NCBI GenBank assembly: GCA_963762565.1
Contig: CAVXLD010000001.1
Coordinates: 928,001 to 992,000 of the forward strand
Length of the DNA stretch: 64,000 bases
Reading direction: 5' to 3'
Source: an uncultured Verrucomicrobiae bacterium
Lineage (GTDB): Bacteria > Verrucomicrobiota > Verrucomicrobiia > Chthoniobacterales > JAFAMB01
A program made the position numbers and the translations under genes. Under the pieces are notes generated by a model that saw only the letters and a program-made list of their open reading frames with translations, did not search any database and was not told the DNA's origin. This document shows positions 1,461 through 60,865 of this stretch, one piece after another (within the stretch, counting starts at the first letter, position 1; each line of letters begins with the position of its first letter).

Positions 1461-1728
1461 CGGAGGGGAGCCGCTTTGGTATGCACCAGGCGACCTGGCG
1501 ATATTTGTTCAGCGGTCAATCCAACCAAAGAATGTGGCAATGTGCGGCTCCCGGGAATAGCCCAGCGCAAGGATTTACCCATGGTCCAATTTGATTACAC
1601 GCAACCGCAGAGCTGCGAACCGCTGGGTCGTTCCCGGGGAGCCGCCTGTTGTTGCCCGTTTCGGCCGATTAGGGTTAGCACAAAATTCGCGAGGGCGAAA
1701 AGATGCGCTCCAAAGCGGCTCCCCTCCG
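1461..1728. repeat. Palindromic element family A, copy 1 (REP-doublet/MITE-like, nested inverted repeats)
   Basis: Ends CGGAGGGGAGCCGCTTTGG / CCAAAGCGGCTCCCCTCCG; inner pair GCGGCTCCCGGGAATAGCCCAGCG / CGCTGGGTCGTTCCCGGGGAGCCGC. Confidence 0.9.
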
Positions 1729-1740
1729 AGCGCCGGGCAA

Positions 1741-2706
1741 TTAACGCTCCAGTCCCAATCTTTGCTTAAAATATCCAATGGTTTCGCGGACGCCGGATTC
1801 AAAATCCACTTTGGGTTGCCAACCCAGCAAACGTTTTGCTCGGGTTATATCGGGCTGGCGAACACGGGGATCATCTACCGGGAGCGGCTTAAACACGATT
1901 TGCGACGTAGAACCGGTCAGAGCCATGATTTTTTTAGCGAAATCAAGAATCGTCATTTCTGCTGGATTCCCAATATTAACCGGTTCGTGGAAATCCGAGA
2001 GCGACAACCGGACGATACCATCAATCAAATCGGACACGTAGCAGAAGCTCCGGGTTTGGCTGCCATCGCCAAAAACCGTAAGGGGTTCGTTGTGAAGAGC
2101 CTGACTAACAAAGGCCGGGACGACTCTTCCATCTTGGAGGCGCATTCTGGGGCCGTAGGTATTGAAAATCCGGACAATCTTAGTGTCCATGCCATGGAAC
2201 CGGTGGTAAGCCATCGTCATCGCTTCGGCGAACCGCTTGGCCTCGTCGTAGACACCTCTGGGCCCAATAGGATTAACGTGCCCCCAATAATCTTCGCTCT
2301 GTGGGTGCACCAACGGATCACCGTAGCATTCCGACGTTGAAGCCAACAGAAAGGTCGCTCCTTTGTCCTTTGCCAAACCGAGCGTGTTGTGTGTCCCCAG
2401 CGCACCCACTTTCAAAGTGGGAATCGGATGTTCCAGGTAATCTATTGGGCTGGCCGGAGAGGCAAAATGGAAGACGTAATCTACCGGACCGGGAACAAAG
2501 ATGTATTCCGAGACATTTCGGCGGATAAACTTAAAATCGGGATTCCCCGCCAGATGCTCGATGTTGTCGGTATTCCCGGTGATCAGATTGTCGATCCCAA
2601 TGACTCTAAATCCCTCCGCGAGCAATCGATCGCTTAAATGCGAGCCGAGAAAGCCCGCTCCGCCGGTGACCACCGCTGTTTTCTTGTTAGACTTCGTTTC
2701 AAACAT
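1741..2706 (-). CDS. UDP-glucuronate decarboxylase-like NAD-dependent epimerase/dehydratase (SDR)
   Basis: [34 protein letters not shown] and [10 protein letters not shown] motifs. Confidence 0.9.
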
Positions 2707-2759
2707 GGACACGCTCTACAATCAGAAGGGTATGACTTATGGATGTCGAGGAATAAATT

Positions 2760-3452
2760 CTATTCCTCAACCTTGCGTTGGTAGGTGTGCCGGATGTCCT
2801 GGGCTTGATTCGTCCAAACCGCATCCTCGGAAATGTTAGTAGCATGGTCACCCACTCGTTCGAGAGCACGGGCGATCAAAATAATATTAAGGTACGATTT
2901 TACCTGATTGGGATCTGCCACAATGCGAGCCATGATCTTGTCGCCGACTTCCAGATTCAGCTGATCCAGTTCGCGGTCACGCGATTTCATCTTGAGCGCC
3001 ATTTCAACGTCCCGGTCGACAAAAGCGCGCATACTGTCCCGAAAAATCGCTAGAGCTCGTTGAAAAACCGGCTCCAAAAGTGAAATCTCGGACACAACTG
3101 CTTCCGTGTTCAATTTCTTGGCCTTACGTGCAATCGCAACCGACTGATCGGCGATTCGTTCCAGGTTAGCGCTCAGCTTCATCGCCGAAATGACTTCGCG
3201 CATATCGGAAGCCACCGGATGAAACCGGATCAATAAGTCAATCCCTTCACGATCGATCTCTTTCTCCAAAGAATCGACCTCTTCGTCATCGGCGATCGCG
3301 AGATTGCAGAGATCGTTGTCACGCTTAAGCAGGCCTTCCATGGCGAAGTTAAGAAGCCGCTCTGTCAAACTCGACATCATCAAGACGTCGTTTCTTAGTG
3401 ACTGGAGTGCGGTCTCAAAGTTGCTACTAATGTGTTTACCTAACGGCGCCAT
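2760..3452 (-). CDS. phoU: Phosphate signalling protein PhoU
   Basis: Two PhoU repeats: LERIADQS and LERVGDHATNISE. Confidence 0.92.
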   Translation of the reverse strand: MAPLGKHISSNFETALQSLRNDVLMMSSLTERLLNFAMEGLLKRDNDLCNLAIADDEEVDSLEKEIDREGIDLLIRFHPVASDMREVISAMKLSANLERIADQSVAIARKAKKLNTEAVVSEISLLEPVFQRALAIFRDSMRAFVDRDVEMALKMKSRDRELDQLNLEVGDKIMARIVADPNQVKSYLNIILIARALERVGDHATNISEDAVWTNQAQDIRHTYQRKVEE

Positions 3453-3524
3453 AAAAATCTAATTCCCCCTCGGCACGGGATAATACCTCTCCCCAAGCCT
3501 CTCGGCGAGGCAGTTTTTAAAAAC

Positions 3525-4045
3525 AGGAGCTAGGAGCTAGAATCTAGGAGTTAGGAGGCGTTCTGCGGCCTGAATCGTTCTCGTCCTTCGTCGTCGTCCT
3601 CGTCCTCGAAAAGGTCGCAGGTTAACAAGGCGTTTTTGTTCCCAACGTCCGGAGGGGAGCCGCTTCGGCGCGTAGCCCACGACCTCGCGATGTTTCTTTC
3701 AGCGCTCAATCCAACCACGAAATGTCGCAACAGGCGGCTCCCGCGAATAACCCAGCGCGACGTTTTACCCGTGGCTCCGATTCGTTTCGTTTACAGCGGG
3801 CCTCAGACATGCGAACCGCTGGGTCGTTCCCGGGGGCCGCCTGTTTTTGCACGTTTCGGCCGGATTAATGTTGAGACGAATTTCGCGAGGGCGGACAGAT
3901 TAACGCCAAAGCGGCTCCCCTCCGGGGCATTGGACAATCGCTCCTCGCATCAACAGGCCACGCCTTTCGAGGACGAGGACGACGACGAGAACGATTCATG
4001 CCGCTAGATTTCCTCCTAGCTCCTAGATTCTGGCTCCTGGCTCCT
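3525..4045. repeat. Four-layer nested inverted-repeat complex containing family A copy 2 (3649-3925)
   Basis: (AGGAGCT)n 3525-3558 vs its complement 4012-4045; GAATCGTTCTCGTC..GTCCTCGAAA ~3565-3615 vs complement ~3960-4004; then family A outer and inner repeats. Confidence 0.9.
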
Positions 4046-4051
4046 TCTCGA

Positions 4052-5755
4052 TCACATCCGCTCCGGAACCTCGATACCGAGTAAACCCAAACCTGTTTGG
4101 ATCGTCCGGGAGAACAGATCGCACAGTAAAAGGCGGCTGGCTTTGATCTCGCCCTCGGCCGTAAGCACCGGGCATTGCTCATAAAAGACGTGATATTTGG
4201 CCGCCAACTCATAAAGAAAATTGGCCAACACGTTCGGCTTGAAACCGTCCAGTACCGCCGGCACCACTTCACCAAAGCGTAAAATCTCCTTCCCCAGGCT
4301 CTGTTCGGCAGGATCAGTCAACAGCATACGATCAGGCGGCCGGAATACATCGTCTAACCGGCGAAAAATCGCCCTGCTCCGCACGTACGCATTCTGCAGG
4401 TAGGGAGCTGTGTTTCCCTGAAAAGAAAGCATTTTCGACCACGAAAACACATAGTCGGTTAACCGGTGTTGGGAGAGTTCCGCGTATTTAACCGCGCCTA
4501 GACCCACGACTTTGGCGATTTCTCCGGATTCATCGTCGGGTAATGGCGGATTTTTTTCGCGCACTAATTTCCCTGCCCGTTCGATTGCTTCCTCCAGCAA
4601 CTCGCGCAAGGGAACGGATTCGCCGGAACGCGTTCGCATCAGCTTGCGGTCTTCTCCCAAGATGCTGCCGAAAGCGATATGCTCTAAGTCAACCTTATAC
4701 CCAAGCCTCCGAGCCACCCCGAATAACTGCCTGAAATGGAGTTGCTGCGGTGCGCCGACCACATACCAAATCCCGTCTGGATTCCACCTTTTGATTCGGT
4801 AATCCAAAGTCGCGACATCGGTCGAACCGTAACCAAACCCACCGTCTGACTTGCGGATCATGAACGGCGTTTCCGAAATCTTGTTGTCAAACACTACGGC
4901 CGCACCTTCGCTGATCTCGGCTACGCCCTTGGCTAGAAGGCGTTCGACCATGGACGGCAGCTCGGGGTCGTAAGCGCTCTCGCCGAGTTGTTCATCAAAT
5001 TGGACGCCCAGCAGCGTGTAAATGGCGGCAAACTCGCGACGCGAAAGAGACACACATCGCTCCCAGATGGTCCGGTTCTCCGGGTCGCCCTGTTGCAGCC
5101 GGACCAGCTCAAGCCGGCATTGCTCTAAGACGGCAGCATCTTGCTTCGACCGCAGATCCGCCTCTCGATAGAGGCGCACCAACTCCGCCATGGGTTCAGC
5201 TTCAAGCGCTGCCTCGTTCCGAAAATGTTTCCAGGCGTAAATGACCTTTCCAAACTGAGTTCCCCAATCTCCCAAATGATTATCGGTCACGACTCGATGC
5301 CCTAAAAACCGGGCAATTCGGGCGATCGCATCACCGAGGATTGTCGATCGGATATGACCGACATGCATCGGTTTCGCAATATTAGGGGAGCTGAACTCGA
5401 CGATCAGCGTCTTCGGATTCGAGACCGTATCTACGCCCAACCGGGGATCCTTGGAAACCGCGTGCAGTGTTTGAGCTACAAACTCGGGGTCCAAGCGAAA
5501 ATTGACAAAGCCCGGACCAGCCACTTCCGGCGGAGCACCGATCCCAGCCAGGTCTATCTTTTCGGCAATGCGGCCCGCTAGAGCACGAGGATTCTCCCGG
5601 CGCGCCTTGGCCAAAACCATGGCGATGCTTGTCTGGTAATCGCCATTCCTCGGATCCGCAGTCGGCACTACCTCCGCGGAGTCGACAGGTTCAAGCTCCA
5701 GTGCTGCCAGGGCGTGGGCAAGGCGCTCTTGCAGAGTCTGCGCCACCGTTGGCAT
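4052..5755 (-). CDS. argS: Arginine--tRNA ligase
   Basis: VEFSSPNIAKPMHVGHIRS, GDWGTQFG and GNTAPYLQNAY motifs. Confidence 0.97.
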   Translation of the reverse strand: MPTVAQTLQERLAHALAALELEPVDSAEVVPTADPRNGDYQTSIAMVLAKARRENPRALAGRIAEKIDLAGIGAPPEVAGPGFVNFRLDPEFVAQTLHAVSKDPRLGVDTVSNPKTLIVEFSSPNIAKPMHVGHIRSTILGDAIARIARFLGHRVVTDNHLGDWGTQFGKVIYAWKHFRNEAALEAEPMAELVRLYREADLRSKQDAAVLEQCRLELVRLQQGDPENRTIWERCVSLSRREFAAIYTLLGVQFDEQLGESAYDPELPSMVERLLAKGVAEISEGAAVVFDNKISETPFMIRKSDGGFGYGSTDVATLDYRIKRWNPDGIWYVVGAPQQLHFRQLFGVARRLGYKVDLEHIAFGSILGEDRKLMRTRSGESVPLRELLEEAIERAGKLVREKNPPLPDDESGEIAKVVGLGAVKYAELSQHRLTDYVFSWSKMLSFQGNTAPYLQNAYVRSRAIFRRLDDVFRPPDRMLLTDPAEQSLGKEILRFGEVVPAVLDGFKPNVLANFLYELAAKYHVFYEQCPVLTAEGEIKASRLLLCDLFSRTIQTGLGLLGIEVPERM

Positions 5756-5758
5756 CGT

Positions 5759-6235
5759 TTAAGAAGCTTGAGCCTTTGGCGCTTTATTATCGAAGATAGC
5801 GAGAATCTCCTCCGCCGATTCGGCTCTTCCGAGCTGTTCGCGCACCGATTTGTCGTTCAAAAACTTGGCAATCGCAGCCAATGTCCTGAGGTGCACCTGA
5901 AACTGGTCTTTAGGCACCACAAACAGAACAATGAACTTAACCGGCGAATTGTCTAAAGAATCGAATTCTATGCCGGCAGAAGATCTGCCAAACGCCGCTA
6001 CGACCTCGTTGACGCAATTGGATGATGCATGAGGAATCGCGATCCCGAAGCCGATGCCCGTACTCATTGTTTCTTCCCGTTGGCGCAGCGCCGCTAAAAC
6101 GGATTCGCGGTCGGCTTTTCGAACAGCGCCTTTCTCAACCAACAGATCGATTAATTCAACGATCGCGGCCCACCTCTCGGTGGATTTCATTTCCGGGATT
6201 ATTTGATCTACAGATAAAAGAGAGCCCAAAGTCAT
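5759..6235 (-). CDS. PTS EIIA-type (fructose/nitrogen-regulatory, PtsN-like) protein
   Basis: REETMSTGIGFGIAIPHA phospho-His motif. Start placed at MTLGSLL. Confidence 0.88.
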   Translation of the reverse strand: MTLGSLLSVDQIIPEMKSTERWAAIVELIDLLVEKGAVRKADRESVLAALRQREETMSTGIGFGIAIPHASSNCVNEVVAAFGRSSAGIEFDSLDNSPVKFIVLFVVPKDQFQVHLRTLAAIAKFLNDKSVREQLGRAESAEEILAIFDNKAPKAQAS

Positions 6236-6418
6236 AGCTCGCGAGCCAGAATGCGGCACATTATCAAGGTGCGGACCTTTGACAAGAGCGTTTCGCTTGA
6301 AAGATATGGGCCGCGTGCCATCGATTTTTTTGTTAGCTTTTGCTGGAGCAGCGCACGGCAGAAGACACAGTAACGCCAAATAGAATATTCACCTCCAGAA
6401 CCTGAAAGACACTACGGT

Positions 6419-7867
6419 ATGAAGATTTTGATGGCAACGAGCGAATTTGCTCCTCTCGCGTCCACCGGATCCCTCGGCGAGACGGTACGGACCTTGGCCG
6501 TTGAGTTGAAACGTCTTGGACACGATGTGAGCGTGGCGATGCCACTTTATCGCTCGATCAGGGAAGCGACGTACAAACTGGAACCGTCCTACGACCCGCT
6601 CCAGATCGCTTTAGGGGAGAAAAAAGTGACCGCCGAGTTTCTGACCACGAAAACTACCGAGGGCATCCCGGTTTTTCTGGTCCGGCGAGACGAATACTTT
6701 GACCGCTCCGGAATCTATTCCGGAAATGATCGCGCATATGAGGACAATTCGGAGCGATTTATCTTCTTTTCTAAAGCAGTCGTGGAACTGGCTCGCCTGA
6801 TAACGCCGGCACTTGAAATCGTCCACTGCCATGACTGGCCCACTGCGTTGATTCCCGTCTTCGTTAAAGACAGGCGCCTACCGTTATTGACGGCTCTGAG
6901 TGTTCACGATCTCGAGTATCAGGGTTCTTTCTGGAGCTTCGATTTCGCATTAACCAACCTGGCCGGCGGTTATTTTTCCCCTCGCGGGATCGAGTTTTAC
7001 AACCGGCTGAATTTCCTGAAGGGCGGCATCGTGTACGCCGATTCGGTCGTTTTTCCTGGAGAACTCGTTCTCTATGAATCATTTACGCAAGAGGGTGGAT
7101 ACGGGCTCAACTTAGTCCTTCAAGAAAACTCTAGTCGGACGGTTGGAATCCCGTTCGGTGTCGATTACTCGGCAACTAATCCGCCGTTCGAAAAACTCCT
7201 CGGCCGGAAGATGAAGCTTGATTCTGGAAACGGTAAAGCAGCCTGCCGACAAGCGATTCTGGACCAATTGGAGCTTGAAATCGGAGAGAACGACCTGCTG
7301 ACGGTTTGTCCAATCGAAGAGGGTGATAGCCGGACATTGACCAATGTAATTCCGGTTTTCGATCGGTTACTCACCAGTAACCTGCGTTTCGTATTGCTTG
7401 GCTCCGCCGCGAACAGCTGGGTCTCAGATTTGATGGTCACCCAGCGAAAATACCCGAAGCGGTTCGCCTGGAATCCAGAAGCGGAATCCCGGCTCAAGAC
7501 CCTGGCTCTAGCGGGCGCAGATTTGGCTCTGTTCCCAGGATCGTTGGGGCCTCGCGGCGTCACAGCCATCACCGCCATGCGCTACGGCACTGTCCCGATC
7601 GCAGGTAATCGGGGCGGCCTCCGGCAGATCATTGTCGATTTCGACCCGATTCAAAACGAGGGCTCCGGTCTGGTTTACTACCGGGATCATCCGGAAGCTA
7701 TCTGGGACACCGTGCAGCGAGCTTTCTGGCTAAAGCGGGATCCGGCGAGATGGAACAAACTCGTCGCCGGTTGTGAGGCCGTTGATTTCTCCTGGCCAGC
7801 TTCAGCTCGGACGTTCGCCCAACTTTATGCTGATCTGTTGCGCCACCGGCAAGCGGCATCGGCGTAA
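6419..7867 (+). CDS. glgA: Glycogen/starch synthase (GT5) homolog with degenerate catalytic motifs
   Basis: GT5 motifs DNSERFIFFS, VHCHDW and NFLKGGI are present. KTGGL reads STGSL and PSRFEPCG reads PGSLGPRG. Confidence 0.8.
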   Translation: MKILMATSEFAPLASTGSLGETVRTLAVELKRLGHDVSVAMPLYRSIREATYKLEPSYDPLQIALGEKKVTAEFLTTKTTEGIPVFLVRRDEYFDRSGIYSGNDRAYEDNSERFIFFSKAVVELARLITPALEIVHCHDWPTALIPVFVKDRRLPLLTALSVHDLEYQGSFWSFDFALTNLAGGYFSPRGIEFYNRLNFLKGGIVYADSVVFPGELVLYESFTQEGGYGLNLVLQENSSRTVGIPFGVDYSATNPPFEKLLGRKMKLDSGNGKAACRQAILDQLELEIGENDLLTVCPIEEGDSRTLTNVIPVFDRLLTSNLRFVLLGSAANSWVSDLMVTQRKYPKRFAWNPEAESRLKTLALAGADLALFPGSLGPRGVTAITAMRYGTVPIAGNRGGLRQIIVDFDPIQNEGSGLVYYRDHPEAIWDTVQRAFWLKRDPARWNKLVAGCEAVDFSWPASARTFAQLYADLLRHRQAASA

Positions 7868-8047
7868 CGGCGTGTCGGCGTACCGCGTGTGGGGGTGCTG
7901 GCCGGTAAGAGGTGGTAGCAAGTGAACTTAGTGGACGCAGTGGAACCTACCTGACGCTGGATCAGAGAGAGTCTAGGCGGTCCACTACGTCTACTCAGTC
8001 CACTCCCGTCCACTAAAGCGGGCGCCCATGCGCCCATACGCCCAAAC
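7859..8047. repeat. Nested inverted short-repeat arrays between convergent genes
   Basis: Outer GGCGT-type 8-mers vs CGCCCAT-type 8-mers; inner TTAGTGGAC.. vs ..GTCCACTAA 9-mers. Confidence 0.7.
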
Positions 8048-8048
8048 G

Positions 8049-8354
8049 TCATTTCGGCTTCGGGTCGCCGTCAAAATCCAGGACCAGGGATTCGGCCATA
8101 TTTGGCTTAATGATCTCCTCTACAAACTTGATGTAGAAAGGGTCCTCTTCAAAAATCCGCAAACGCTCTTTCGAATCGAAATCGACCGAGATAAAAAATC
8201 CCCAAGGATTCGACTTATCCGTCCTCCGACCACATCGCACGTTGGCCGCTACCGAGATCTTCAGGAGTTGGATTCGGGTTTGCATCATGATCACTTCGAG
8301 CTGAGCAGAGCTGATGTTTGGCTTCAGTTTGTAGAGAACGATGTGATGAAACAT
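8049..8354 (-). CDS. Dabb / stress-responsive A/B barrel protein
   Basis: MFHHIVLYKLK start, about 100 aa, ends ..VLDF, typical of the Dabb family. Confidence 0.7.
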   Translation of the reverse strand: MFHHIVLYKLKPNISSAQLEVIMMQTRIQLLKISVAANVRCGRRTDKSNPWGFFISVDFDSKERLRIFEEDPFYIKFVEEIIKPNMAESLVLDFDGDPKPK

Positions 8355-8476
8355 GAGCTTTTTCGTTTGTAGAAACTACCTTTGTCCGAGGCAAGTATTA
8401 TCAGCGGCCTGACCTTCTATGCCTCAAAAATGGTCACCTATTTAACGCCGGGGGCTGGCTGCGAGCCACATAAAAC

Positions 8477-9337: not shown

Positions 9338-9408
9338 GGTCGCCGAACAAATCCACCCAAATCCTTGGTTGAAATAGGTGGCTGACACATATAGTCCTCA
9401 AAGGTTTT

Positions 9409-12837: not shown

Positions 12838-13075
12838 GGTAGGGCGAGGCTCCCGATCTTCCTCAAAGGGAACCCAAAAGCGATCGGAGTTTCCCAATCT
12901 GCAGTGCCCAACACCAAATGGTTGCCGAGCCGCGGCCCAACGTTTGCCAGGGCCCATCGCAGCCAGATTATGGGCACGGCTCGGCGGGTGTGTCGGCCCC
13001 AAGACACGAAATCTTCCTTCCGACGTCCCGGTCCCTGGAAAGCCATCGCGGACCGTGCGGGAGCCTCGCCCCACC
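12838..13075. repeat. Palindromic element family E (split GTAG-REP doublet)
   Basis: GGTAGGGCGAGGCTCCCG..68 nt..GCCGAGCCG / CGGCTCGGCGGG..68 nt..GCGGGAGCCTCGCCCCACC. Confidence 0.85.
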
Positions 13076-28840: not shown

Positions 28841-29560
28841 GTGTTGTCGTCAATTAAGGCCAAGTTACTCGTCGCGATAGGTACGATTATCGTCCTAGCG
28901 ACGGTAGCTTACTTTTTTCCTTTGGTGCCCGCGCTGGAGCATGTATCCGCGTGGCTTGGAGGACTGGGTCTAATCGGCGCTGCTTTATTTGCGGTCCTAA
29001 TTGCAGCTTCGAGCCTCTGTTTGTTGCCCGCCAGCCCGTTCATTATCGCCGCGTCAGCGGTTTTTGGCTTCTCCCTTGGTTTATTGACTTCTTCGGTTGG
29101 TATTATCTTGGGCGCATCCTCCGGATATTTCCTTTCCCGCCTTTTCCTTCGCAAGGACTTAGCGGATCAGTTAAAGGAGCGGCCAACCTTCAAAGCCATT
29201 GATCAAGCAATTGCCGAAGAAGGCTGGAAAATAGTCTTACTTCTCCGGTTATGCCCAATTCCGTTCGGCTTGGCCAATTATCTTTACGGCCTCACGGCTA
29301 TTCCATTCGTTCCCTATCTCCTTACCAGTTTCCTTGGGGCAGTGCCGGGAATGATCTTATTCTCGCACCTAGGCGCCGCCGGCAAGGCCGGCCTTCAAGC
29401 GCTAGCTGCGGGAAACCTAAACAAGGGTGGCGGTGAACTCGCGTTGCTCGGGCTGAGTTTAGCAGCAGCGATGGTGCTGGTCTTCCTTGTGCCGCGCCTG
29501 GCTCGCCGCGTACTCGAGAAGCGTACAAAGATCACGATCATTCCAGAAGCTAGGAGCTAG
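28841..29560 (+). CDS. TVP38/TMEM64 (VTT/DedA superfamily) membrane protein
   Basis: LLRLCPIPFGLANYLYGLT motif; multiple TM segments. Confidence 0.88.
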   Translation: MLSSIKAKLLVAIGTIIVLATVAYFFPLVPALEHVSAWLGGLGLIGAALFAVLIAASSLCLLPASPFIIAASAVFGFSLGLLTSSVGIILGASSGYFLSRLFLRKDLADQLKERPTFKAIDQAIAEEGWKIVLLLRLCPIPFGLANYLYGLTAIPFVPYLLTSFLGAVPGMILFSHLGAAGKAGLQALAAGNLNKGGGELALLGLSLAAAMVLVFLVPRLARRVLEKRTKITIIPEARS

Positions 29561-29716
29561 AATCTAGGAGTTAGGAGCGAGCGCCGGGCGCTTGACGTGA
29601 CATTATCCTCGTTTCGATAGGCATTTGAACGTCTTTTCGCCCACACGCTGGTGCGCCCTTTCGCCCATTCGATCTCACACGCCCTGCTAGCTCCTGGATT
29701 CTAGCTCCTAGCTCCT
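29545..29716. repeat. Inverted (AGGAGCT)-type heptamer arrays between convergent genes
   Basis: AGAAGCT AGGAGCT AGAATCT AGGAGTT AGGAG (same variant order as at 3525), with its complement at 29687-29716. Confidence 0.85.
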
Positions 29717-34410: not shown

Positions 34411-34677
34411 CTGGAGGGTAGCCGCTTTGCAGGTTGGCAACTCTGCAGGTTGGCAGCCACCGAAAGCATTCGGGGTAGACAGGCGGCTCCCGAGAATTAC
34501 CCAGCGTTATGCAATTGAATAAGCGTCATGGAAATCGCGTTGGAACCGAGGCGCTGGGCGAAGAGATCACGCTGGGTAATTTCCGGGAGCCGCCTGCTGT
34601 CTCATGGTTCAGACAGACACGCCTTGAGACTAATTTTGCGAGATCGTCCCGTACATGCCGAAGCGGCTCCCCTCCAG
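34411..34677. repeat. Family A copy 3
   Basis: CTGGAGGGTAGCCGCTT..CAGGCGGCTCCCGAGAATTACCCAGCG..CGCTGGGTAATTTCCGGGAGCCGCCTG..AAGCGGCTCCCCTCCAG. Confidence 0.88.
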
Positions 34678-36404: not shown

Positions 36405-36545
36405 GGGGAGGGCGCGCGTCCCCGCGCGCCGCGAGCGGGTCTACGCCGTCCGCATAACCAAACGCCTCAATCCGGTCTGCCATGGGCTCCGCGAACCATC
36501 CGGCATCTGCCAGGCATCTGCCGGACGGGGACGCGATCCCTCCCG
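36405..36545. repeat. Palindromic element family B, copy 1 (GGAG-REP doublet)
   Basis: GGGAGGGCGCGCGTCCCCGCGCGCC ... GGGGACGCGATCCCTCCC. Confidence 0.85.
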
Positions 36546-40263: not shown

Positions 40264-40377
40264 GGTGCGGTCAGTATCGGTCGCTTTTTGGCGACTGTCT
40301 CGCCGTTTTCGGACAGGTAGATTTTCGGGGGCTGGAGGGGGCGGTGGGCGCTGCAGGGCACGTCGGGCAGGGTACGG

Positions 40378-40449
40378 ATGGGACTTATATGACCTATGGG
40401 ACCTATAGGTCGCCCGTCATATAAGTCCTATAGGTCATATAAGTCCTAT
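40378..40449. repeat. Inverted 9-mer arrays (ATGGGACTT / AAGTCCTAT type)
   Basis: Read directly. The same family occurs at 55860-55929. Confidence 0.8.
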
Positions 40450-40471
40450 CTGTGCGCCCGCCCACCGTCCA

Positions 40472-50155: not shown

Positions 50156-50397
50156 CCCCTGATCGGTAGGGCGAAAAACTCGGCGCGCTGAATGCATGTT
50201 TGTTTCAACCGCTTGCCCGCGCCGGTTTTGAGCCGTCCCGTGCGTGTGCCACCTCAAAGGCGGGCACGATCCATGGCTATTTTGGCCGCCCAATGGATGA
50301 AAACGACCCCACGGTGCCGCTCAAAACCGGCGCGGACTAATTACAGGCACAATCAACGTCTTCGGCGCGCCGAGTTTTTCGCCCTACCGATCAGGGG
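50156..50397. repeat. Palindromic element family D (GTAG-REP doublet with loop inserts)
   Basis: CCCCTGATCGGTAGGGCGAAAAACTCGGCGCGC / GCGCGCCGAGTTTTTCGCCCTACCGATCAGGGG; inner CCGCGCCGGTTTTGAGC / GCTCAAAACCGGCGCGG. Confidence 0.9.
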
Positions 50398-50425
50398 CCT
50401 GCTACACGCCCCTCGGCAAGCCGCG

Positions 50426-51253: not shown

Positions 51254-51280
51254 AGTGCTACTAGCAGCTAACAGCCGCAG

Positions 51281-53435: not shown

Positions 53436-53444
53436 TATAGAGGA

Positions 53445-54074: not shown

Positions 54075-54087
54075 AGCGTCAGGCTTC

Positions 54088-54186
54088 AAAATGACAAATG
54101 ACAAATGACAAATGACAGATGACAAATCGCTGGCCCCACTCTCCTGAGGCGTTACATTTGTCATTTGTGATCTGTCATTTGTCATC
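54088..54186. repeat. Inverted (ATGACAA)n / (TTGTCAT)n heptamer arrays
   Basis: Read directly. Confidence 0.85.
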
Positions 54187-54230
54187 CTGGACCGGTCACA
54201 AATCCGTTACAGATTTGTGAGTGGTCCAGG

Positions 54231-54821
54231 TCAATCCATCGGCGTCAGGAAATGATCCCAATCCCTGACGTTGTGAGCATTCCGAATAAAGTAAGTAACC
54301 GGCAACTCCCGAGGAGATTGCGGTTTCTTTGCCAGCTTTAGGCCGACTTCGTCCGGTAGACGGTTCCCTTTAAGGCTGTTGATCTTCTTGTCAGCCAGAA
54401 CGCAATTCTCCCAAGTGGTCGTCCCGCCTCGTGACCGGGGAACGACGTGATCAATATTGCCCTCGTGCGGCCCAAGCTTTTTACCGGTGTACTGGCATTT
54501 TCCCCCATCTCTTTCCCAAATCCCTCGGGCGGAGAGTTTTGGCCGGCGCTTCGGTACCTTGTTGTAGCGAGCCAAGACCAGCACCGTTGGCACCCGAACC
54601 AGACCTCGCACGGTACGAACAGCGTTATCTTGTTCCCGAGTCTCCAGTTCTAGCCACTCGATCCAACGAACGGGTCGCATATCCCCAGTACCTTCGATGT
54701 CCAGGGCGGTGGCGTTTCCGTTCGCCATCATGCAAAATGCTTGTGCAGGTGTTTTTACATCGATAGCCTGCCAGTTCCGATTCAGCACCAGAACCGTCGA
54801 TTTGTATAGGACGTCGTTCAT
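54231..54821 (-). CDS. HNH endonuclease (McrA-like)
   Basis: VLVLN, RD..CQYTG, IDHVVPRSRGG..WEN and N..KG motifs. Confidence 0.9.
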   Translation of the reverse strand: MNDVLYKSTVLVLNRNWQAIDVKTPAQAFCMMANGNATALDIEGTGDMRPVRWIEWLELETREQDNAVRTVRGLVRVPTVLVLARYNKVPKRRPKLSARGIWERDGGKCQYTGKKLGPHEGNIDHVVPRSRGGTTTWENCVLADKKINSLKGNRLPDEVGLKLAKKPQSPRELPVTYFIRNAHNVRDWDHFLTPMD

Positions 54822-54921
54822 GCCGTCGCCTCAACCATTTGATTTGTCGGTCGCCCGATTGCGACAGACTTATGCTTCAAAATTCAACAATTGTCTAGCG
54901 AGACGGCGCCCGCCGTCTTGC

Positions 54922-55031
54922 TATGACAAATTACAAATGACAAATGACAAATAGCTTCCGCCACGGTTATTGTGCACCTCTCTCACTACCAATCTGTCAT
55001 TTTCGATCTGTCATCTTGTCATCTGTCATTT
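54922..55031. repeat. Second inverted (ATGACAA)n / (CTGTCAT)n array pair
   Basis: Read directly; abuts the start of the PHP gene. Confidence 0.85.
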
Positions 55032-55033
55032 CC

Positions 55034-55816
55034 ATGCGTTGCGATTGTGATTACCACACCCACCCACAGGGCCACGCGGTCCGTCCCTACACGATCGAGC
55101 TCCTGCAACCCTGGATCGATCGATGCCGGGAGCGAGGTATCGAAAGTATAGCGTTCACAGATCACGACCGGTACCGCGAAGGGGTCGACTTCGATGTGGT
55201 CGATCGGTTGCGAGAGATGAATCCTGGCCTTGAGATTTTGCAGGGGATTGAATTGGACAATGATCCCGTAACCGGCAAAGGCGGGCTGGGGTGGGTCGAA
55301 ACCCATTGGGATCGTCTCGATTTTGTGCTCGGCTCGGTCCATTATTTGCCGGGCGCAAACCGGATGTTCGATGGAGCCGATCAAGCCGGCCAATTGCATT
55401 CGCTGGGTTTCGAACGCGCGTATGAGGGATACCGGTCGCAACTTGAGGCATTGATGGAGCGAGGACACATCGATTGTCTGTCGCACTTGGATCTAATAAA
55501 GATTCATGGACTCGCGCCGAACACCTACGAACCCGAGCAGTTTTTTGGACCGATCCTTCGGGAGATAGCTAAACGCGGGCTGGCCATGGAAATCAATACC
55601 GCGGGTTGGAGGAAGCCGGTCAGCGAACAATACCCGGCCGAATCGATCTTGCGCGCGGCCCTAGCCCTGAACATCCCTATCACGATCTCATCGGATGCGC
55701 ATTCATTTGCGCAGGTCGCCGAGGATTATGCGAGGCTCGAACAACTGTTGGAGCGGGTCGAACTGGAAAAGCCGGCGAGGTTCCGGCGGCATCAGGCTGG
55801 AGTGGCCCAGCGATAA
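55034..55816 (+). CDS. PHP-family histidinol-phosphatase (HisJ-like)
   Basis: DYHTH, TDH, GIELD, DFVLGSVH, HLDLIK, EINT and SDAH motifs. Confidence 0.85.
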   Translation: MRCDCDYHTHPQGHAVRPYTIELLQPWIDRCRERGIESIAFTDHDRYREGVDFDVVDRLREMNPGLEILQGIELDNDPVTGKGGLGWVETHWDRLDFVLGSVHYLPGANRMFDGADQAGQLHSLGFERAYEGYRSQLEALMERGHIDCLSHLDLIKIHGLAPNTYEPEQFFGPILREIAKRGLAMEINTAGWRKPVSEQYPAESILRAALALNIPITISSDAHSFAQVAEDYARLEQLLERVELEKPARFRRHQAGVAQR

Positions 55817-55859
55817 TGCAACCTGTGTACCTGCCGGAACCGCGCTGGGTTTCTCAACG

Positions 55860-55929
55860 GATGGGACTTATACGACTTATGGGACTGATATGACGACCCA
55901 TAGGTCCCATTAGTCCTATAGGTCCCATC
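55860..55929. repeat. Inverted 9-mer arrays between convergent genes
   Basis: gatgggacttatacgacttatgggact ... cccataggtcccattagtcctataggtcccatc. Confidence 0.8.
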
Positions 55930-55966
55930 CGCTCCCGGAGCCCACAGCGGCGCTCACCTCGAGCCT

Positions 55967-57124
55967 CTACCGTAGCTCATCATTGAGCAGCTTTAGCATG
56001 GTGAACAACAGCAACGACCGCTCCACCAAGCTTTCGGAAGTCAGGAACTCCTTCTCGCTATGGATGGCGCCGCCCCTGGCGCCTAAGTTATCAAGATTCG
56101 GTAATCCCTGTTGCGCCAACCGATTCCCGTCGCAGGTGCCACCCGTTGGCTTCGCATTGAGGTCGATCCCGATTTGGGCTGCAGCCCGTTGAGCTTGGGT
56201 GATGAGCCACGAAATCTCGGGAGTCATCATTTTCGGCGGCGCTGTGAATTGCCCGCCGAGTTCGATTCGATACCGGTCTCCGTCTTGCAACGAGACTCGC
56301 AGCCGCTCCAGTTCGCGCTTAAGCCAATCTTCGTCCTCCCGAGACGTAGTACGAACGTTGAGCTGACAGGTTGCTAGATCGGGGACCACATTGGTCGCCT
56401 CGCCTCCCGAAACGATGGCCGGGTTCAAAAAAACAGTGGACCGCTGCTCGTTGAGTCGCTGGCAGGCCAAGATAAACTGGGCCAGCGGAACGAGCGCGTT
56501 TCTGCCAGCCGTCGGATTTCGGCCGCTGTGAGCCGCCTTTCCCAGAGCTTTAAATGTAAACGTGCCAGACCCTTTTCGCGTAGACGCCAGCGACCCATCT
56601 TCGAGCGCCGGCTCGAACCCGAAACCAAATCGATGTTTCTTTGCTTCAGCCGCAAACACCTCGGAAGAGATTGGTGAGCCAATTTCTTCGTCCGAATTGA
56701 TAATGATCGTCCACCCAAAGTTCTTGTCCGGGACGAATCGTTCGAAAGCCGACAAGCCGCAGCGCAAGATCGCCAAGCCGCCCTTCATGTCGCAAACGCC
56801 GGGACCGCGTATCTCGTCTGCCGCGAGCTTGGCCTGTTGCAACGGATGTTCGGGGCTATAGACGGTATCGAGGTGACCGAAGAAAAGCACCTGCTGGGCG
56901 GCCTGATTGCGTTTCCGAAAGATGGCGATTGGCCCGCCGTCGGCTTTGTCCGGGTGTAAAAGCTCCGAGAAATCGGGGTCGGTCTTTTGAAAATCGGCAT
57001 AGATGACCTTGGCCGCGGAATAGAGGCCGGGAATGTTTCGACTGCCTGAATTGATATCCGACCAAACCAAAACCCGCTGAATCAGCTCGGTCCGCTGCGC
57101 GTTGATCCATTCGTTCGCCGTCAT
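55967..57124 (-). CDS. M20 family metallo-amidohydrolase (ArgE/carboxypeptidase G-like)
   Basis: GHLDTV, GPGVCDMKGG, DEEIGS, AAHSGR and IHS motifs. Confidence 0.88.
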   Translation of the reverse strand: MTANEWINAQRTELIQRVLVWSDINSGSRNIPGLYSAAKVIYADFQKTDPDFSELLHPDKADGGPIAIFRKRNQAAQQVLFFGHLDTVYSPEHPLQQAKLAADEIRGPGVCDMKGGLAILRCGLSAFERFVPDKNFGWTIIINSDEEIGSPISSEVFAAEAKKHRFGFGFEPALEDGSLASTRKGSGTFTFKALGKAAHSGRNPTAGRNALVPLAQFILACQRLNEQRSTVFLNPAIVSGGEATNVVPDLATCQLNVRTTSREDEDWLKRELERLRVSLQDGDRYRIELGGQFTAPPKMMTPEISWLITQAQRAAAQIGIDLNAKPTGGTCDGNRLAQQGLPNLDNLGARGGAIHSEKEFLTSESLVERSLLLFTMLKLLNDELR

Positions 57125-58464
57125 TTCTGGAATGAATAGATGGAGCCGAGCCCAAGGATCTGAGTTAGCTTATCCAGGGCGGTTTGGATCTCCCTCAGCA
57201 ATACTGGTTCGCGAACGTCCGATAACGAGAGAGACTCGCGGTAATAGCGTTTCACCCAGGACGTCAATTCGTTGAAAAGCTGCTCGGAAAAGAATAACCC
57301 CGGCGGAATAGCACACTGCTCTTCCTGGTTCAAAACGACTCGAGTGCGCAGACAAGCGGGTCCGCCTCCGTTCTGCATACTCTCGCGAAGATTTAGAAAC
57401 AACACATCGGCGAGCGCGGCATCCGCACCTTTCACGAGGTCCGCAATGACTGAGCGCACCCTAGGATTTTCCTCGGACTCGGTCGGGGCTACCATCACCA
57501 GCCGACCATCACTGCGAGTGACGATCTGCGAATTAAAAAAATAAGATTCGACCGCGTCTGCTAAGGAAAACTCTTTGATCTCGATTGCCCGCAGACTTCG
57601 ATGCTGAGCCTCCCCGAACACTTTTTCTAGGCGACCTAGAACCATCGGACCGTCGGCAAATGCATCGGCATGATAGAGGAACAACGACCCGTGACCGGTT
57701 GAGATCACGTCGTTATGAAACACACCCGCGTCGATCGCCGCAGGAGATTGACGCGCGAAAACCACGGTATCTTCAGGAAGTTGGTGTAAACGGGCGATGG
57801 CTTGGCAAGCCTCGAAAGTCTGGCGTTGAGGGTAGTGGGTAAGCGGGTTGGATCCAAAATACTCTTTGCCATAAACAAATAGATGCACCCCCAGCCCTCC
57901 CTCAGGGCCAACCAATCGGACGTGGTTCGCCGCCCCTTCATCACTAAAAGCGACTGTCTTTGGGAGCGGCGGATGGTGTTTGAACAAGGTGAAATTAGGA
58001 AAGATCTTTTTGAGCAAAGCAGCAGTTTCGTCTGCCTCTAACGAACGATGCAAGTTCGATATCAGGTTGGCCGGAGTTACATGCATGCACCCATCACGCG
58101 AATCGCAGCTAGGCGCGAACATGGCTGCATTCGCAGCCCACATACCGGAAGCCGAGAAGGCCGCCGACAAAAGTGAAGGACTATGGCGAAACGCTTCTTC
58201 AATAATCTGTTGATCGCCGCCCATAAATCCGGCTCGTCTCAATAGATCAACACGAGGCCGGTAAAGTGGAGGGAGGATCGCTTGACCTACTCCCATCCCG
58301 GCGAGAACCCGCATTTTTTCCAGGCCTTGTAACGCTGCCAAGCGAGGGTGTGAAATCTGGAAGCGATGGCCGACAGATGCACGATTTCCTTCTGCTAATC
58401 CGCCGTAGTGATGGGTCGGCCCAACCAGTCCGTCAAAATTGAATTCTCGATAAGCCAAAGTCAC
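57121..58464 (-). CDS. astB: N-succinylarginine dihydrolase
   Basis: EFNFDGLVGPTH.Y.GL..GN.AS, MWAANAA, DEGAANH, GVFHNDVI and ESMQNGGGPACLR motifs. Confidence 0.95.
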   Translation of the reverse strand: MTLAYREFNFDGLVGPTHHYGGLAEGNRASVGHRFQISHPRLAALQGLEKMRVLAGMGVGQAILPPLYRPRVDLLRRAGFMGGDQQIIEEAFRHSPSLLSAAFSASGMWAANAAMFAPSCDSRDGCMHVTPANLISNLHRSLEADETAALLKKIFPNFTLFKHHPPLPKTVAFSDEGAANHVRLVGPEGGLGVHLFVYGKEYFGSNPLTHYPQRQTFEACQAIARLHQLPEDTVVFARQSPAAIDAGVFHNDVISTGHGSLFLYHADAFADGPMVLGRLEKVFGEAQHRSLRAIEIKEFSLADAVESYFFNSQIVTRSDGRLVMVAPTESEENPRVRSVIADLVKGADAALADVLFLNLRESMQNGGGPACLRTRVVLNQEEQCAIPPGLFFSEQLFNELTSWVKRYYRESLSLSDVREPVLLREIQTALDKLTQILGLGSIYSFQK

Positions 58465-59483
58465 CTCGGGATAAAAATGACGCGACTGCCAACCTTGAGC
58501 CGGAGCCGCTCCGCGATTCTTGGTTCGATGGCAACACTTATTCCGTCAAGGGACTCGACTTCGGCCAGACACGCCCGAAAGTCCAAGGCAGCGTGGCCAA
58601 TTAAACAAACCGAACCCCTACTCAACGCGCGGACTTCACCGACTTGCGCGGTAGCCGCTTCGCGGATGGCCTTGATTTCAGACCGATGCGCGATCACCAA
58701 TGGCCCACCGTCGAAAATGTCGACCTCATCGGATCTACCGAATCCCTGGTTGAGCAAAATCCGAAGAGCAGGTTCCGCGTCCCGATGCACTCTTCCGATA
58801 ACCGCTTGCGCCGCCAACGGCAGCATCGCCGCATAAATCGGGTACTTCGGCATCAGGTCGCGAATGAAATCCTTTTGACCGCTTCCACTCAAAAAGTCGG
58901 CTTGAGCGAAAGTCTGGGAAAAAAAGTGGCGCCCAATCGATTCCCAAAACGGCGATAGACCTTGCTCGTCAGTGAACCCGCGCATCTCGGCAATGACTCG
59001 ATCGTCAAACCGTTTAGGGAATGCAGCCATAAAGAGGAATCGGGCAAGCGACAACAATTGGCCCAGTCCTGCCCGGCGAAAGGTTGGCTTTAGACAAAGG
59101 CTGCCGACTTCAGAGGGCCCTTTGTGGTCGAGCTTCAAATGAAGCACATCCAATTCGCGATCAATGCCGAGCGGAGGGTGAGAAAATCGCTCTTTGCGCA
59201 CCTCGTAAGTGTAAAACGGATCGAAACCGCCTACTCGGGCGATAATGCCGGAGGTTCCGGCGATCTCTCCAGTGTCGCATTCTTCCAGCACAAACAGATA
59301 ATGATCGCCACCCGCCTTTTTTATTCGGTAATCGAAGGAACGTTGGGAATGATTGATCAAGTCTTCGAGCGCCGATTCCTCTGCCGGAAGCGAAGTCATC
59401 CCGTCCGTAATGGAGGTCGCCACGCCTTTTAACCCTGACAGGTCCTTGTCTTCTACTGGCCGAAGTACAAAATCGGGAAGCAT
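58461..59483 (-). CDS. astA: Arginine N-succinyltransferase
   Basis: TSLP, YLFVLE, LLSLARFLF, AEMRG..SPFW, LMPKYPIY and DIFDGGP motifs. Start placed at MLPDF. Confidence 0.93.
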   Translation of the reverse strand: MLPDFVLRPVEDKDLSGLKGVATSITDGMTSLPAEESALEDLINHSQRSFDYRIKKAGGDHYLFVLEECDTGEIAGTSGIIARVGGFDPFYTYEVRKERFSHPPLGIDRELDVLHLKLDHKGPSEVGSLCLKPTFRRAGLGQLLSLARFLFMAAFPKRFDDRVIAEMRGFTDEQGLSPFWESIGRHFFSQTFAQADFLSGSGQKDFIRDLMPKYPIYAAMLPLAAQAVIGRVHRDAEPALRILLNQGFGRSDEVDIFDGGPLVIAHRSEIKAIREAATAQVGEVRALSRGSVCLIGHAALDFRACLAEVESLDGISVAIEPRIAERLRLKVGSRVIFIPR

Positions 59484-59524
59484 CGATGAATCTTGGCGTT
59501 GAGGATCGGAGAGTTCAAGGAGAA

Positions 59525-59710
59525 GGGGACGCCACCCGTGGAGCGCTGCCTCGCTTGCGAGGCCGTGGTGAGCAGGGATGAATCGTGCGGCCCGCTTCTG
59601 TGGAACAGAGGCATCTGACGTAGAGCGCTGACAAGGAAGGGCTGCGCCTCGCGATTTCCCTTGCTCACCACGGCCTCGCAAGCGCGGCGCGCTCCACGGG
59701 TGGCGCCCCC
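59525..59710. repeat. Family C copy 2
   Basis: CGCCACCCGTGGAGCGCTGCCTCGCTTGCGAGGCCGTGGTGAGCAGGG ... CCTTGCTCACCACGGCCTCGCAAGCG..GCGCTCCACGGGTGGCG. Confidence 0.9.
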
Positions 59711-59718
59711 TACCAGGC

Positions 59719-60483
59719 TCAATACAACACCCGCACGAGATAGAGGCCTTCCGCTGGCGCGGTGTGATTCGTCTTTTTTTTGCCAGGCTTTTCTAGCAGC
59801 TCCTTCAACCAATCTCCGTCCTTCCGGCCTAAAGCCATCTGCACCAACGACCCCGTGATCATACGGACCATCCGATACAGAAATCCGTCCCCGGTAAACT
59901 CGAGTGTAACCAGTGAACCTTGGCGTCGCACTTTAATGTCTTGAAGGTTACGAACCGTGGTTTCCGGGGGCACGCCTCGGTTCGCGGCAAACGACGCAAA
60001 GTCGCGCTGACCGCGAAATTGTCCCGCATAGGTCATGAGATCATCTACGGCGAGCCGCTGAGGAACATGCCATGCCCTGCCAACTTCCAAGGGATGGAAT
60101 GTCTCGGTATTCCAGATCCGGTACCGATAGACTTTGCCCTTAGCGGAGAACCTGGCGTGAAACTCCCGGGAGACCCGGCGACAGGCAACGATCCTGATGC
60201 TGGACGGCAGATTGGCATTCAGAGCGACCCGCCAGGTCGAGGTCGGGAATCGTTTGGCGGGAACGTCTACGTGCGCGGCTTGGGCAAGGGCATGCACGCC
60301 TGCATCCGTTCGGCCGGCGCCGTGCACTCTGGCAGGTCGATCGAGGATCTTTGCCAACGCCGCCTCGAGATGATCTTGGACACCGCTCCGGTTAGGCTGG
60401 CTTTGCCAACCCGCGAACGGAGTCCCGTCGTAGGCGATGGTCAGATGAAGCCGTTCTGTTCCGCGTGAGTCGCTAACCTGCAT
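59719..60483 (-). CDS. truA: tRNA pseudouridine(38-40) synthase
   Basis: YDGT.F.GWQ, AGRTDAGVHA, FHARFSA and GFLYRMVR motifs. Confidence 0.96.
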   Translation of the reverse strand: MQVSDSRGTERLHLTIAYDGTPFAGWQSQPNRSGVQDHLEAALAKILDRPARVHGAGRTDAGVHALAQAAHVDVPAKRFPTSTWRVALNANLPSSIRIVACRRVSREFHARFSAKGKVYRYRIWNTETFHPLEVGRAWHVPQRLAVDDLMTYAGQFRGQRDFASFAANRGVPPETTVRNLQDIKVRRQGSLVTLEFTGDGFLYRMVRMITGSLVQMALGRKDGDWLKELLEKPGKKKTNHTAPAEGLYLVRVLY

Positions 60484-60587
60484 CAGTACTCAGAATAGCA
60501 GATAGCAACTAGCAAATGGCGCTTTTCGCGCACTGGGCGCTTCGTTCTCGTCCTCCAGTAACGCACGTGGCATCGCGCCCCACGGCC

Positions 60588-60865
60588 TGGAGGGGAGCCG
60601 CTTTGGCGCGTGCTTGTATGGTCCCCCGTATTTCTTCCGAAGACGGGCCTGACCTTAGCGTGTGCAAAACAGGCGGCTCCCGCGAATTACCCGGCGCAAC
60701 GTTCTCACCCAGCGATTCTATTCGTTGATTTTCACAGACCCCGATAGAGATGCAACACGTTCGCACATTCCCGGGAGCCGCCTGCTTGGTACCTGATTCG
60801 GCTAGACCAACGCTGCGATGAATACGCGAGGTACTACAAGCAAGCGCCAAAGCGGCTCCCCTCCA
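60588..60865. repeat. Family A copy 4
   Basis: TGGAGGGGAGCCGCTTTGGCGC..CAGGCGGCTCCCGCGAATTACCC..GGGAGCCGCCTG..GCGCCAAAGCGGCTCCCCTCCA. Confidence 0.88.

Follow-up and report, generated by a model that had tools for sequence, protein, structure and literature searches.

Three co-resident repeat families, probably of the REPIN type and with unusually long loops, and their RAYT partner genes in a verrucomicrobial genome

A window of 64,000 nucleotides (nt) from the genome of an uncultured Verrucomicrobiae bacterium (C1:928001-992000 of a 6.12-Mb assembly with 15 contigs) contains inverted doublets of three sequence families, here called A, D and E. Each half of a doublet is a unit that consists of a tag (GGAG or GTAG), a stem strand, a loop of 29-71 nt and a second stem strand. 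For each family one intact gene for a REP-associated tyrosine transposase (RAYT; REP, repetitive extragenic palindromic) was found in the same genome, located where a doublet has its spacer, between the two arms. We conclude that the three families are very probably co-resident populations of the REPIN type (REP doublets forming hairpins), each with its own RAYT partner and with unusually long apical loops.

RAYT genes and element anatomy

RAYTs are Y1/HUH single-strand DNA nuclease-transferases related to TnpA-REP of Escherichia coli. A weak match to the Pfam profile Y1_Tnp at C1:579877-580146, between weak family-A hits, led to RAYT-A, a gene for 153 amino acids (aa) at C1:579808-580269 (positions 1309-1767 of locus L011). 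The Y1_Tnp search of the genome gave 12 matches and missed the RAYTs of families D and E, which were found by a search with the RAYT-A protein. Against the NCBIfam model NF047646 ('REP-associated tyrosine transposase', cut-off 80 bits), RAYT-A scored 89.4 bits and RAYT-E 83.1 bits, while RAYT-A stayed at 19.2 bits against the IS200 model NF033573 and did not reach its cut-off of 55. RAYT-A also matches PDB entry 4ER8, the TnpA-REP of E. coli, at E = 6.7e-8. The HUH histidines and the tyrosine are invariant across RAYT-A, RAYT-D and RAYT-E, and the paralogues share 34-37% identity.

The flanks of the three genes are built from the units of the respective family. To the left of RAYT-A, two full and one partial A unit stand in tandem, each composed of GGAGGGGAGCCGC, a 33-nt loop, GCGGCTCCCG and a tail, and to the right stands one inverted A unit. 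RAYT-D (C7:542274-542699) lies between complete left and right arms of family D, and RAYT-E (C10:17399-17833) between complete left and right arms of family E. Since in each family the gene sits between the same arms as the spacer, the A, D and E elements can be read as the gene-less doublets of three RAYT-centred units, as in the REPIN-RAYT arrangement (PMC3337134 and the RAREFAN preprint). An earlier sequence-only reading of the window had drawn the analogy to REP, REPIN and RAYT systems, had supposed a nuclease encoded elsewhere and had proposed to look for its gene between the same stems. All of this held: the search succeeded for A, D and E alike, with three RAYT-type genes that lie outside the window and are each flanked by the two arms of their own family.

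The four family-A copies in the window (Table 1) share one order of parts, namely T/C, the head GGAGGGGAGCCGC, a loop, GCGGCTCCCG, the centre, CGGGAGCCGC, a second loop, the tail GCGGCTCCCCTCC and A/G. The tag directly 5' of the stem is GGAG in family A and GTAG in families D and E, and the stem measures 9-13 bp. Seven of the eight A arms have a loop of about 68-70 nt, the exception being the left arm of the copy at 34412. In the window copy of family E, 68 and 71 nt separate the outer block (GGTAGGGCGAGGCTCCCG) from the inner block (GCCGAGCCG), in agreement with the inserts of about 68 nt first noted; for family D the position of the inserts was seen correctly, but their length is about 29 nt in the window copy and not about 25 nt. 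The architecture of the three families and the four positions of family A given by that reading were borne out as well, and a profile search extended family A to 208 loci. The head GTAGGGCGA, which is common to D and E, occurs 398 times in the genome. Of the exact heads, 61 of 118 in family E and 36 of 52 in family D are accompanied by the inverted tail at a distance of up to 600 nt. Such numbers greatly exceed what chance would give.

Pairing could be assessed in family D, for which 25 elements were collected by an exact-motif pattern (50 strand-wise matches). This family has a single variable stem position, and its two partners within the arm form a Watson-Crick pair (T:A, A:T or C:G) in every one of the 50 arms. 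Four of the 25 elements are heterodimers whose arms carry different variants, so that pairing between the arms is broken. The fact that pairing within the arm is kept in these heterodimers indicates that the arm hairpin is the structural unit and has the insert in its loop, in line with the sequence-only reading. The stems of family A are invariant, and covariation cannot test their pairing.

Table 1. Elements and hairpin shells in the window (positions of the window; L, M and S are the loop modules of family A)
Feature	Position	Strand	Description
Family A copy 1	1461..1728	+	L loops in both arms; nhmmer 246.5 bits at C1:929462-929727; located between two minus-strand open reading frames
Family A copy 2	3650..3924	+	head block 3651-3663, left loop 3664-3733, inner blocks 3734-3743 and 3832-3840, right loop 3841-3910, tail block 3911-3923
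Family A copy 3	34412..34676	+	left arm with 56-nt M loop (S module + 23-nt hairpin), right arm with L loop
Family A copy 4	60588..60865	+	L loops in both arms; within mirrored AGCAAAT-type array hairpin
Family E doublet	12838..13075	+	outer blocks 12838-12855 and 13058-13075; inner blocks 12924-12932 and 12978-12986
Family D doublet	core 50165..50388, palindrome to 50156-50397	+	outer GGTAGGGCGAAAAACTCGGCGCGC and its inverse, inner CGCGCCGGTTTTGAGCC and its inverse
Outermost shell of A copy 2, left half	3524..3557	.	mirrored short-period array AGGAGCTAGG...; partner 4012-4045
Outermost shell of A copy 2, right half	4012..4045	.	partner of 3524-3557
Second shell of A copy 2, left half	3588..3611	.	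TCGTCGTCGTCCTCGTCCTCGAAA; 100% complementary to 3965-3988
Second shell of A copy 2, right half	3965..3988	.	complement of 3588-3611

Family-A copy 2 is enclosed by further hairpin shells, and the sequence of its second shell recurs beside many other A copies across the genome. Mirrored short-period arrays (AGGAGCTAGG... and TCGTCCTCG...) form its outer shells, and similar array shells adjoin many A copies genome-wide. An AGCTAGG-type shell at 29545-29716 of the window has no A element inside.

Some additional observations concern the RAYTs and related genes. Upstream of all three RAYTs lies an AT-rich, partly palindromic stretch (e.g., ...ATAACACACAATATTTATAGGTTGTGATAT...; about 1265-1308 in L011, also in L051 and L052), which could be a common promoter or operator. 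A fourth RAYT paralogue at C4:78543-78997 (L053) is frameshifted and has a visible arm of the GGAGGGGCGT type on the left only; its intact counterpart in a genome of the same genus (L019 in G005) has flanking units whose loops measure about 60 nt. Five IS200-like Y1 genes of about 150 aa, one of them with an internal TAG (C7:408772, C3:712536, C3:55497, C9:102253 and C1:119032; L001-L005), are each flanked by inverted classical REP-like hairpins (GTCCCGTAGGGAC..., GTAGCCTGGCA...TGCCTGG) and are a separate Y1/REP system. Four proteins of about 345 aa with an N-terminal Y1_Tnp-like domain (C1:531701, C5:482843, C12:565110 and C3:501577; L006-L009) were also seen. Inverted flank matches measure 23 nt at C5:482843 and 29 nt at C3:501577, and none were notable at C1:531701 and C12:565110.

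Copies, loop modules and ends of family A

The profile for family A was built from the four window copies and run on the 6.12-Mb genome, where it gave 406 strand-wise hits corresponding to the 208 loci. Near end-to-end matches (n = 153) measure 190-229 nt in 44 cases, 230-259 nt in 16 and 260-309 nt in 93. The blocks are invariant or at least 90% conserved at a mean column identity of 65%, as determined in 58 aligned long copies. The repeats are thus many and the RAYTs single-copy, and 168 of the 208 loci lie outside a crude map of open reading frames (ORFs).

Loops were parsed in 148 of 149 anchored copies, with up to two mismatches allowed per block. They belong to three modules, each with a clear consensus: S of 33 nt, M of 56 nt (S plus a 23-nt hairpin) and L of about 69 nt. 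The left and right versions of S are reverse complementary to each other. Among the parsed copies, 43 are S/S, 86 are L/L and 19 are mixed or contain M. The lengths are narrowly set, at 69.3 ± 1.3 nt for left L loops, 69.2 ± 0.9 nt for right L loops and 33.2 ± 0.5 nt for S loops. The centre, or spacer, of family A is less constant (86.8 ± 7.1 nt), and the spacers of the doublets range from 55 to 141 nt. The earlier description of conserved stems and diverged loops was therefore correct, while the near-constant length ascribed to the variable segments applies to the loops and less to the centre.

That reading had also raised the possibility that the elements carry captured sequence, i.e., that loop and centre segments are of foreign or host origin, as in spacer-type memory or cargo. 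The strong divergence of loops that nevertheless keep their length, the modular arms of mixed S/L elements and the different interiors at one site in different species speak for capture. In contrast, just three loop modules were found in the 148 parsed copies. BLAST searches of the genome with five examples each matched exclusively inside A loci (L-left 42/42, L-right 50/50, S-left 12/12), and the 23-nt hairpin of M was found 22 times inside A loci and once outside, next to a decayed A block. In the congeners, the L module can be recognised as the same one. One complete A copy (window 3650-3924) was compared with 50,697 phage and 72,556 plasmid records and matched none of them; loops alone and metagenome collections were outside this search. 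Since each loop class has a clear consensus, the loops are diverged homologues across copies and species and not unrelated captures, and we regard capture as very improbable.

The structured RNA suggested by the same reading fared no better. On this view, many gene copies would encode a structured non-coding RNA, with RNA helices formed by the stems and with variable or guide-like segments in the loops. Lone A copies do fold as single, very stable long hairpins (-135 to -158 kcal/mol, 14 copies folded), and the stems are strongly conserved. However, the window gave no Rfam match at gathering score. RNAalifold returned a covariation term of -0.34 for 58 L/L copies, with a double change in 2 of 34 pairs; the helices are invariant and hence uninformative either way, and MAFFT aligns loops poorly, which makes the lack of loop pairs weak evidence. 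Folding energies are equal on the two strands (-143.1 versus -140.6 and -128.5 versus -129.9), and the RAYT gene between the arms of each family is a further point against RNA genes.

The genomic setting of the copies likewise speaks against RNA genes. The gaps that contain the 168 loci outside ORFs are tandem in 88 cases, convergent in 44 and divergent in 36, compared to 1895, 740 and 749 in the background, and there is thus no preference for a gap type. Nor is there an orientation bias in tandem gaps, with 48 copies co-oriented with and 40 opposed to the genes. No co-evolution was found between the left and right loops of one copy: their complementarity was 0.659, compared to 0.658 with the neighbour copy, defined as the copy with the most similar left loop. 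The own loop won in 36 and lost in 37 cases among 82 L/L copies, the number left of 86 when identical 20-nt flanks were counted once. The lack of an advantage for the own loop, together with the lack of a strand or orientation bias, suggests that the loops drift, and we give almost no credence to the RNA interpretation.

The ends of the elements were compared in 149 copies. Direct flank repeats of 2-8 nt, as expected from a target-site duplication, were found in 0-1 of them, and the flanks tend instead to inverted repeats (78/149 at 2 nt). CT stands directly 5' of GGAG in 96 copies and AG directly 3' of CTCC in 104. The CT beside the tag and the missing target-site duplication fit the CT cleavage rule described by Messing et al. 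(2012, PMC3479197). These findings bear on a further explanation, in which the elements are ordinary miniature inverted-repeat transposable elements (MITEs) with terminal inverted repeats that are bound and moved by the DDE-type transposase of an insertion sequence (IS). Long inverted termini, high copy number and intergenic location are common to such MITEs and the elements described here. The target duplications of an ordinary MITE were among the things that the sequence-only reading had wanted examined, and they are missing here, with flanks inverted rather than direct. Moreover, the covarying partner in family D lies in the same arm and not at the other terminus, as the 4 of 25 heterodimers illustrate, and RAYTs are the only genes found between such arms, in a genome that was not scanned for every IS family. 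An origin as DDE-mobilised MITEs is accordingly extremely unlikely.

The motif CCCA[AG]CGCC directly adjoins the A element in about half of the copies (left flanks 72/148, right flanks 68/148, counted with up to two mismatches), and a short classical REP family (GGGAGGGATCGCG...; window positions 36405, 44400 and 62833) likewise has it immediately next to its head. The motif directly followed by its own inverse, which would be an 'empty' palindromic target, was not among its common followers. CCCA[AG]CGCC could be a target site, an outer layer of the element or the tail of a neighbouring unit.

Turnover at orthologous sites and short-loop relatives

Sites orthologous to those of the window were compared in five genomes of the same genus (G001-G005), whose flanking genes are 72-93% identical to those of the present genome (G000). 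Where anchors were present, the A2 site was compared in G003 and G004, the A4 site in G002-G005 and the D site in G002-G004. As Table 2 shows, elements are present or absent from genome to genome, and A, D and E replace one another; a comparison of such sites in relatives for empty alleles had been proposed by the sequence-only reading. G000 and G002-G005 agree in where the E site begins, right behind the upstream gene. At the A3 site, the interior in G000 is not homologous to that in G002-G005 (loop identities of 0.53-0.63 as a global-alignment score), and the interiors of G004 and G005 are 0.85 identical to each other.

Table 2. Content of orthologous sites in this genome (G000) and in congeners; A1-A4 are the sites of family-A copies 1-4
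Site	G000	G001	G002	G003	G004	G005
A1	A	different hairpin, no A	7-mer array hairpin	A	7-mer array hairpin	remnant
A2	A within two array shells			outer array hairpin, no A	family E	
A3	A	no full-length match	A	A	A	A
A4	A		A	bare array hairpin (129 nt)	A	71-nt gap
D	D		no D element	no D element	no D element	
E	E	none	E head and third REP family	D head and third REP family	E	family D

Replacement was also seen at much closer range. A soil-metagenome contig of 2665 nt, with 35 differences from the window in 2,415 aligned letters, bridges 2690-3531 and 4054-5626 (sides of 842 and 1573 letters); where the window has the 522-nt A2 composite (3532-4053), the contig has 251 other letters. A joint of the same depth runs from 13076, at the end of the family-E copy, to 4054. 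The replacement at the A2 site of the soil strain thus ends like a family-E element, as read from the joint and not from the letters of the contig. Short-sided joints (e.g., 3665 to 3727, with sides of 21-27 letters) were set aside, as their source is probably other A copies of the metagenomes. Copies A1 and A4 resemble paralogues in the same genome more closely (0.81-0.83) than they do the orthologues at their own positions (0.69-0.77). This closeness and the differences from site to site suggest that the sites were refilled or converted and not merely inherited.

Another polymorphic spacer is the intergenic stretch of 184 nt at 7867-8050: contigs of two soil runs, nearly identical to the window otherwise, have 107 other letters in its place. 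Another palindromic repeat family, made of GGGACTTATA/GGGACCTATAGG words, was seen at 40374-40453 and 55857-55931, and these words also fill the interior of the A2-site hairpin in G003. The REP-like hairpin family of the five IS200-like genes recurs at the E site of G002 and G003.

Outside the genus the loops become short. A RAYT-A homologue was found in 27 of 41 genomes searched, this one counted, and in all five same-genus genomes; the closest titled relative of the RAYT is from a verrucomicrobiotal metagenome-assembled genome (MAG) and shares 75% identity. In the same genus, the gene is flanked by inverted units with S-type loops (L013-L015) or a 72-nt loop (L016). In another genus of the family (L017, L018), A-type blocks are only TT apart, and one genome adds an adjacent variant whose loop measures about 32 nt. 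Ordinary tagged REPs flank the gene outside the family, and their loops are a few bases long (L020-L023, L113, L114 and L116-L118), and in L114 and L117 the outer and inner blocks of family E adjoin each other. The location of distant RAYT homologues beside short-loop REPs suggests that the large loops are a lineage-specific expansion.

One of these loci, L113, is on a public MAG contig titled Chthonomonas sp. (Armatimonadota). Its RAYT-A homologue (53% identity) is nearer than many from Verrucomicrobiota and is flanked by arrays of short GGAG-tagged REPs, which may reflect transfer between phyla.

Mechanism and comparison with known systems

Judged from sequence, the RAYTs would act on the arms of their own families. 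In the mechanism that we propose, the RAYT would bind the tag and the lower stem of a folded unit on single-stranded DNA, cut at C^T beside the tag and then transfer strands. Copying, loss or exchange of doublets at intergenic sites, in many cases within older hairpins, would be the result. Indirect indications that the RAYTs mobilise the repeats are the presence or absence of elements and the family swaps at orthologous sites, and the CT beside the tag in 96 of 149 copies. The loops would have grown in this lineage and then drifted as inherited modules, while tag and stems stayed fixed. Such long loops may be tolerated, and could have grown, because the enzyme leaves the hairpin tip uncontacted in the solved TnpA-REP complex: according to Messing et al. 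(2012, PMC3479197), the 5 bp nearest the tip and the tip bases are without enzyme contact, while the tag is essential and cleavage takes place at a CT dinucleotide.

Several observations weigh against the view that A, D and E are REPIN populations with RAYT partners. RAYT-D scored 69.2 bits against NF047646, under the curated cut-off of 80, and RAYT-A 21.9 bits against Pfam Y1_Tnp, under the cut-off of 23. The units fall outside the usual size definition of REPs (20-40 bp with short loops), and the midpoint of 40 of the 208 A loci lies inside an ORF of the crude map. The A copies are old, with a mean pairwise identity of 0.71 among the 86 L/L copies and a median of 0.83 to the nearest copy. 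Pairs with 97-98% identity were found only among four copies with identical flanks (C3:923334, C1:340365, C12:29702 and C3:509300), which are part of a larger four-copy duplicated segment, and recent transposition within this genome is consequently not supported. At orthologous sites the four blocks are 94-98% identical and the loops 0.53-0.83, with block values that are biased upward by parsing at up to two mismatches; this contrast indicates that simple selfish decay is insufficient and that selection per copy, conversion or repeated replacement is needed. Nor does this view account for the tight loop lengths (standard deviation of about 1 nt, compared to 7 nt for the spacer).

The constancy of the blocks leads one to ask if the elements at present chiefly serve the host as DNA or mRNA structures (for example as terminators, as mRNA stabilisers or as sites of nucleoid proteins), which are selected locus by locus and for which the RAYTs are maintenance enzymes and not transposases. 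Besides the contrast between blocks and loops, this would agree with fixed sites that are refilled by some family (A or E at the A2 site; E, D or others at the E site) and with the REPIN-RAYT literature, in which such systems are described as vertically inherited and long-lived. A role as terminator, however, predicts a preference for convergent or tandem gaps or for one orientation, which was not observed, and several orthologous sites are empty or contain unrelated hairpins. We consider a mainly host-serving nature highly unlikely, and it is not mutually exclusive with a REPIN-type nature.

A different process in this genus, which is unlikely but deserves to be set out, would give the long loops more than a passive role and would be directed to hairpin tips, with RAYT paralogues inserting and exchanging cassettes at the tips and heads of existing hairpins. 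If true, it would account for fixed-length loops in all three families, for mixed loop modules in one element and for copies inside older array hairpins. It would further account for one docking site with A, with E in a near-identical strain or with D in a congener. The fixed loop lengths, with their standard deviation of about 1 nt, would then reflect a geometric need of the enzyme-DNA complex or of a host protein.

If the three families are REPIN populations as we propose, standard REP searches, which look for hairpins of 20-40 bp with tiny loops, could miss whole systems in poorly studied phyla. The loop series from short via 33 and 56 to 69 nt is a natural experiment on the parts of a REP that a RAYT needs, and it agrees with the uncontacted hairpin tip in the crystal structure. 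The conservation of blocks beside drifting loops and the mutual replacement of A, D and E bear on the nature of REPINs, which may be selfish, kept up by conversion or of use to the host. With regard to annotation, the A, D and E elements account for a large share of the intergenic repeats in this genome.

Compared to the GTAG-tagged REPs surveyed by Di Nocera et al. (2013, PMC3733652), the elements are similar in their GTAG-type tag, which is sometimes degenerate (GTGG), in stems of 6-13 bp, in the occurrence of head-to-head (HH) dimers and of several families per genome, and in their presence in the Planctomycetes-Verrucomicrobia-Chlamydiae superphylum, where the survey includes the verrucomicrobium Opitutus terrae. 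As given there, GTAG-tagged REPs have stems of 6-13 bp and loops of mostly 2-3 bp, at most 27 bp, and the HH dimers have spacers of 20-100 bp whose length may persist without the sequence. The loops of families A (33, 56 or about 69 nt), D (about 29 nt) and E (68-71 nt) are longer than this stated maximum. A pruning step of the survey removed repeats whose loops departed in length or composition from those of most family members, and the units described here would probably have been lost to it. The tag GGAG of family A has no occurrence in PMC3733652.

Insertion sequences of the IS200/IS605 group and their gene-less derivatives (palindrome-associated elements) have subterminal hairpins at both ends and make no target-site duplication, and the gene-less copies keep only the ends, a trait that the A, D and E doublets share. 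The elements described here agree with these insertion sequences, which are described in PMC3479197, in a Y1 HUH enzyme, hairpins at both ends, single-strand DNA chemistry and the lack of a target-site duplication. They differ in the model that RAYT-A matches, which is the one for RAYTs (89.4 bits) and not the one for IS200 (19.2 bits, cut-off 55), and in that each RAYT is single-copy and not multi-copy.

The closest agreement is with REPIN-RAYT systems, i.e., REP doublets with a single-copy RAYT as described for Pseudomonas fluorescens SBW25 (PMC3116915, PMC3337134 and the RAREFAN preprint), and for comparison the REPs and bacterial interspersed mosaic elements (BIMEs) of E. coli with TnpA-REP (PMC3479197). 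In both, a 5' tag is followed by a hairpin, inverted units surround a spacer, hundreds of copies are extragenic, and one RAYT per family, with HUH and tyrosine motifs, is flanked by the same units; CT beside the tag, the lack of a target-site duplication and long persistence within a lineage are likewise common to them. In contrast to the known systems, the units measure about 95-110 nt and not 20-40 nt, the doublets 200-285 nt and the apical loops 29-71 nt, and all three families of one genome have expanded loops. These loops are discrete modules in family A (33, 56 and 69 nt), which may differ between the arms, and the copies are strongly diverged (mean identity 0.71) and have no dominant master sequence. 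Where the sequence-only reading had considered an undescribed class of element, these comparisons place the family A, D and E elements as a variant of REPINs.

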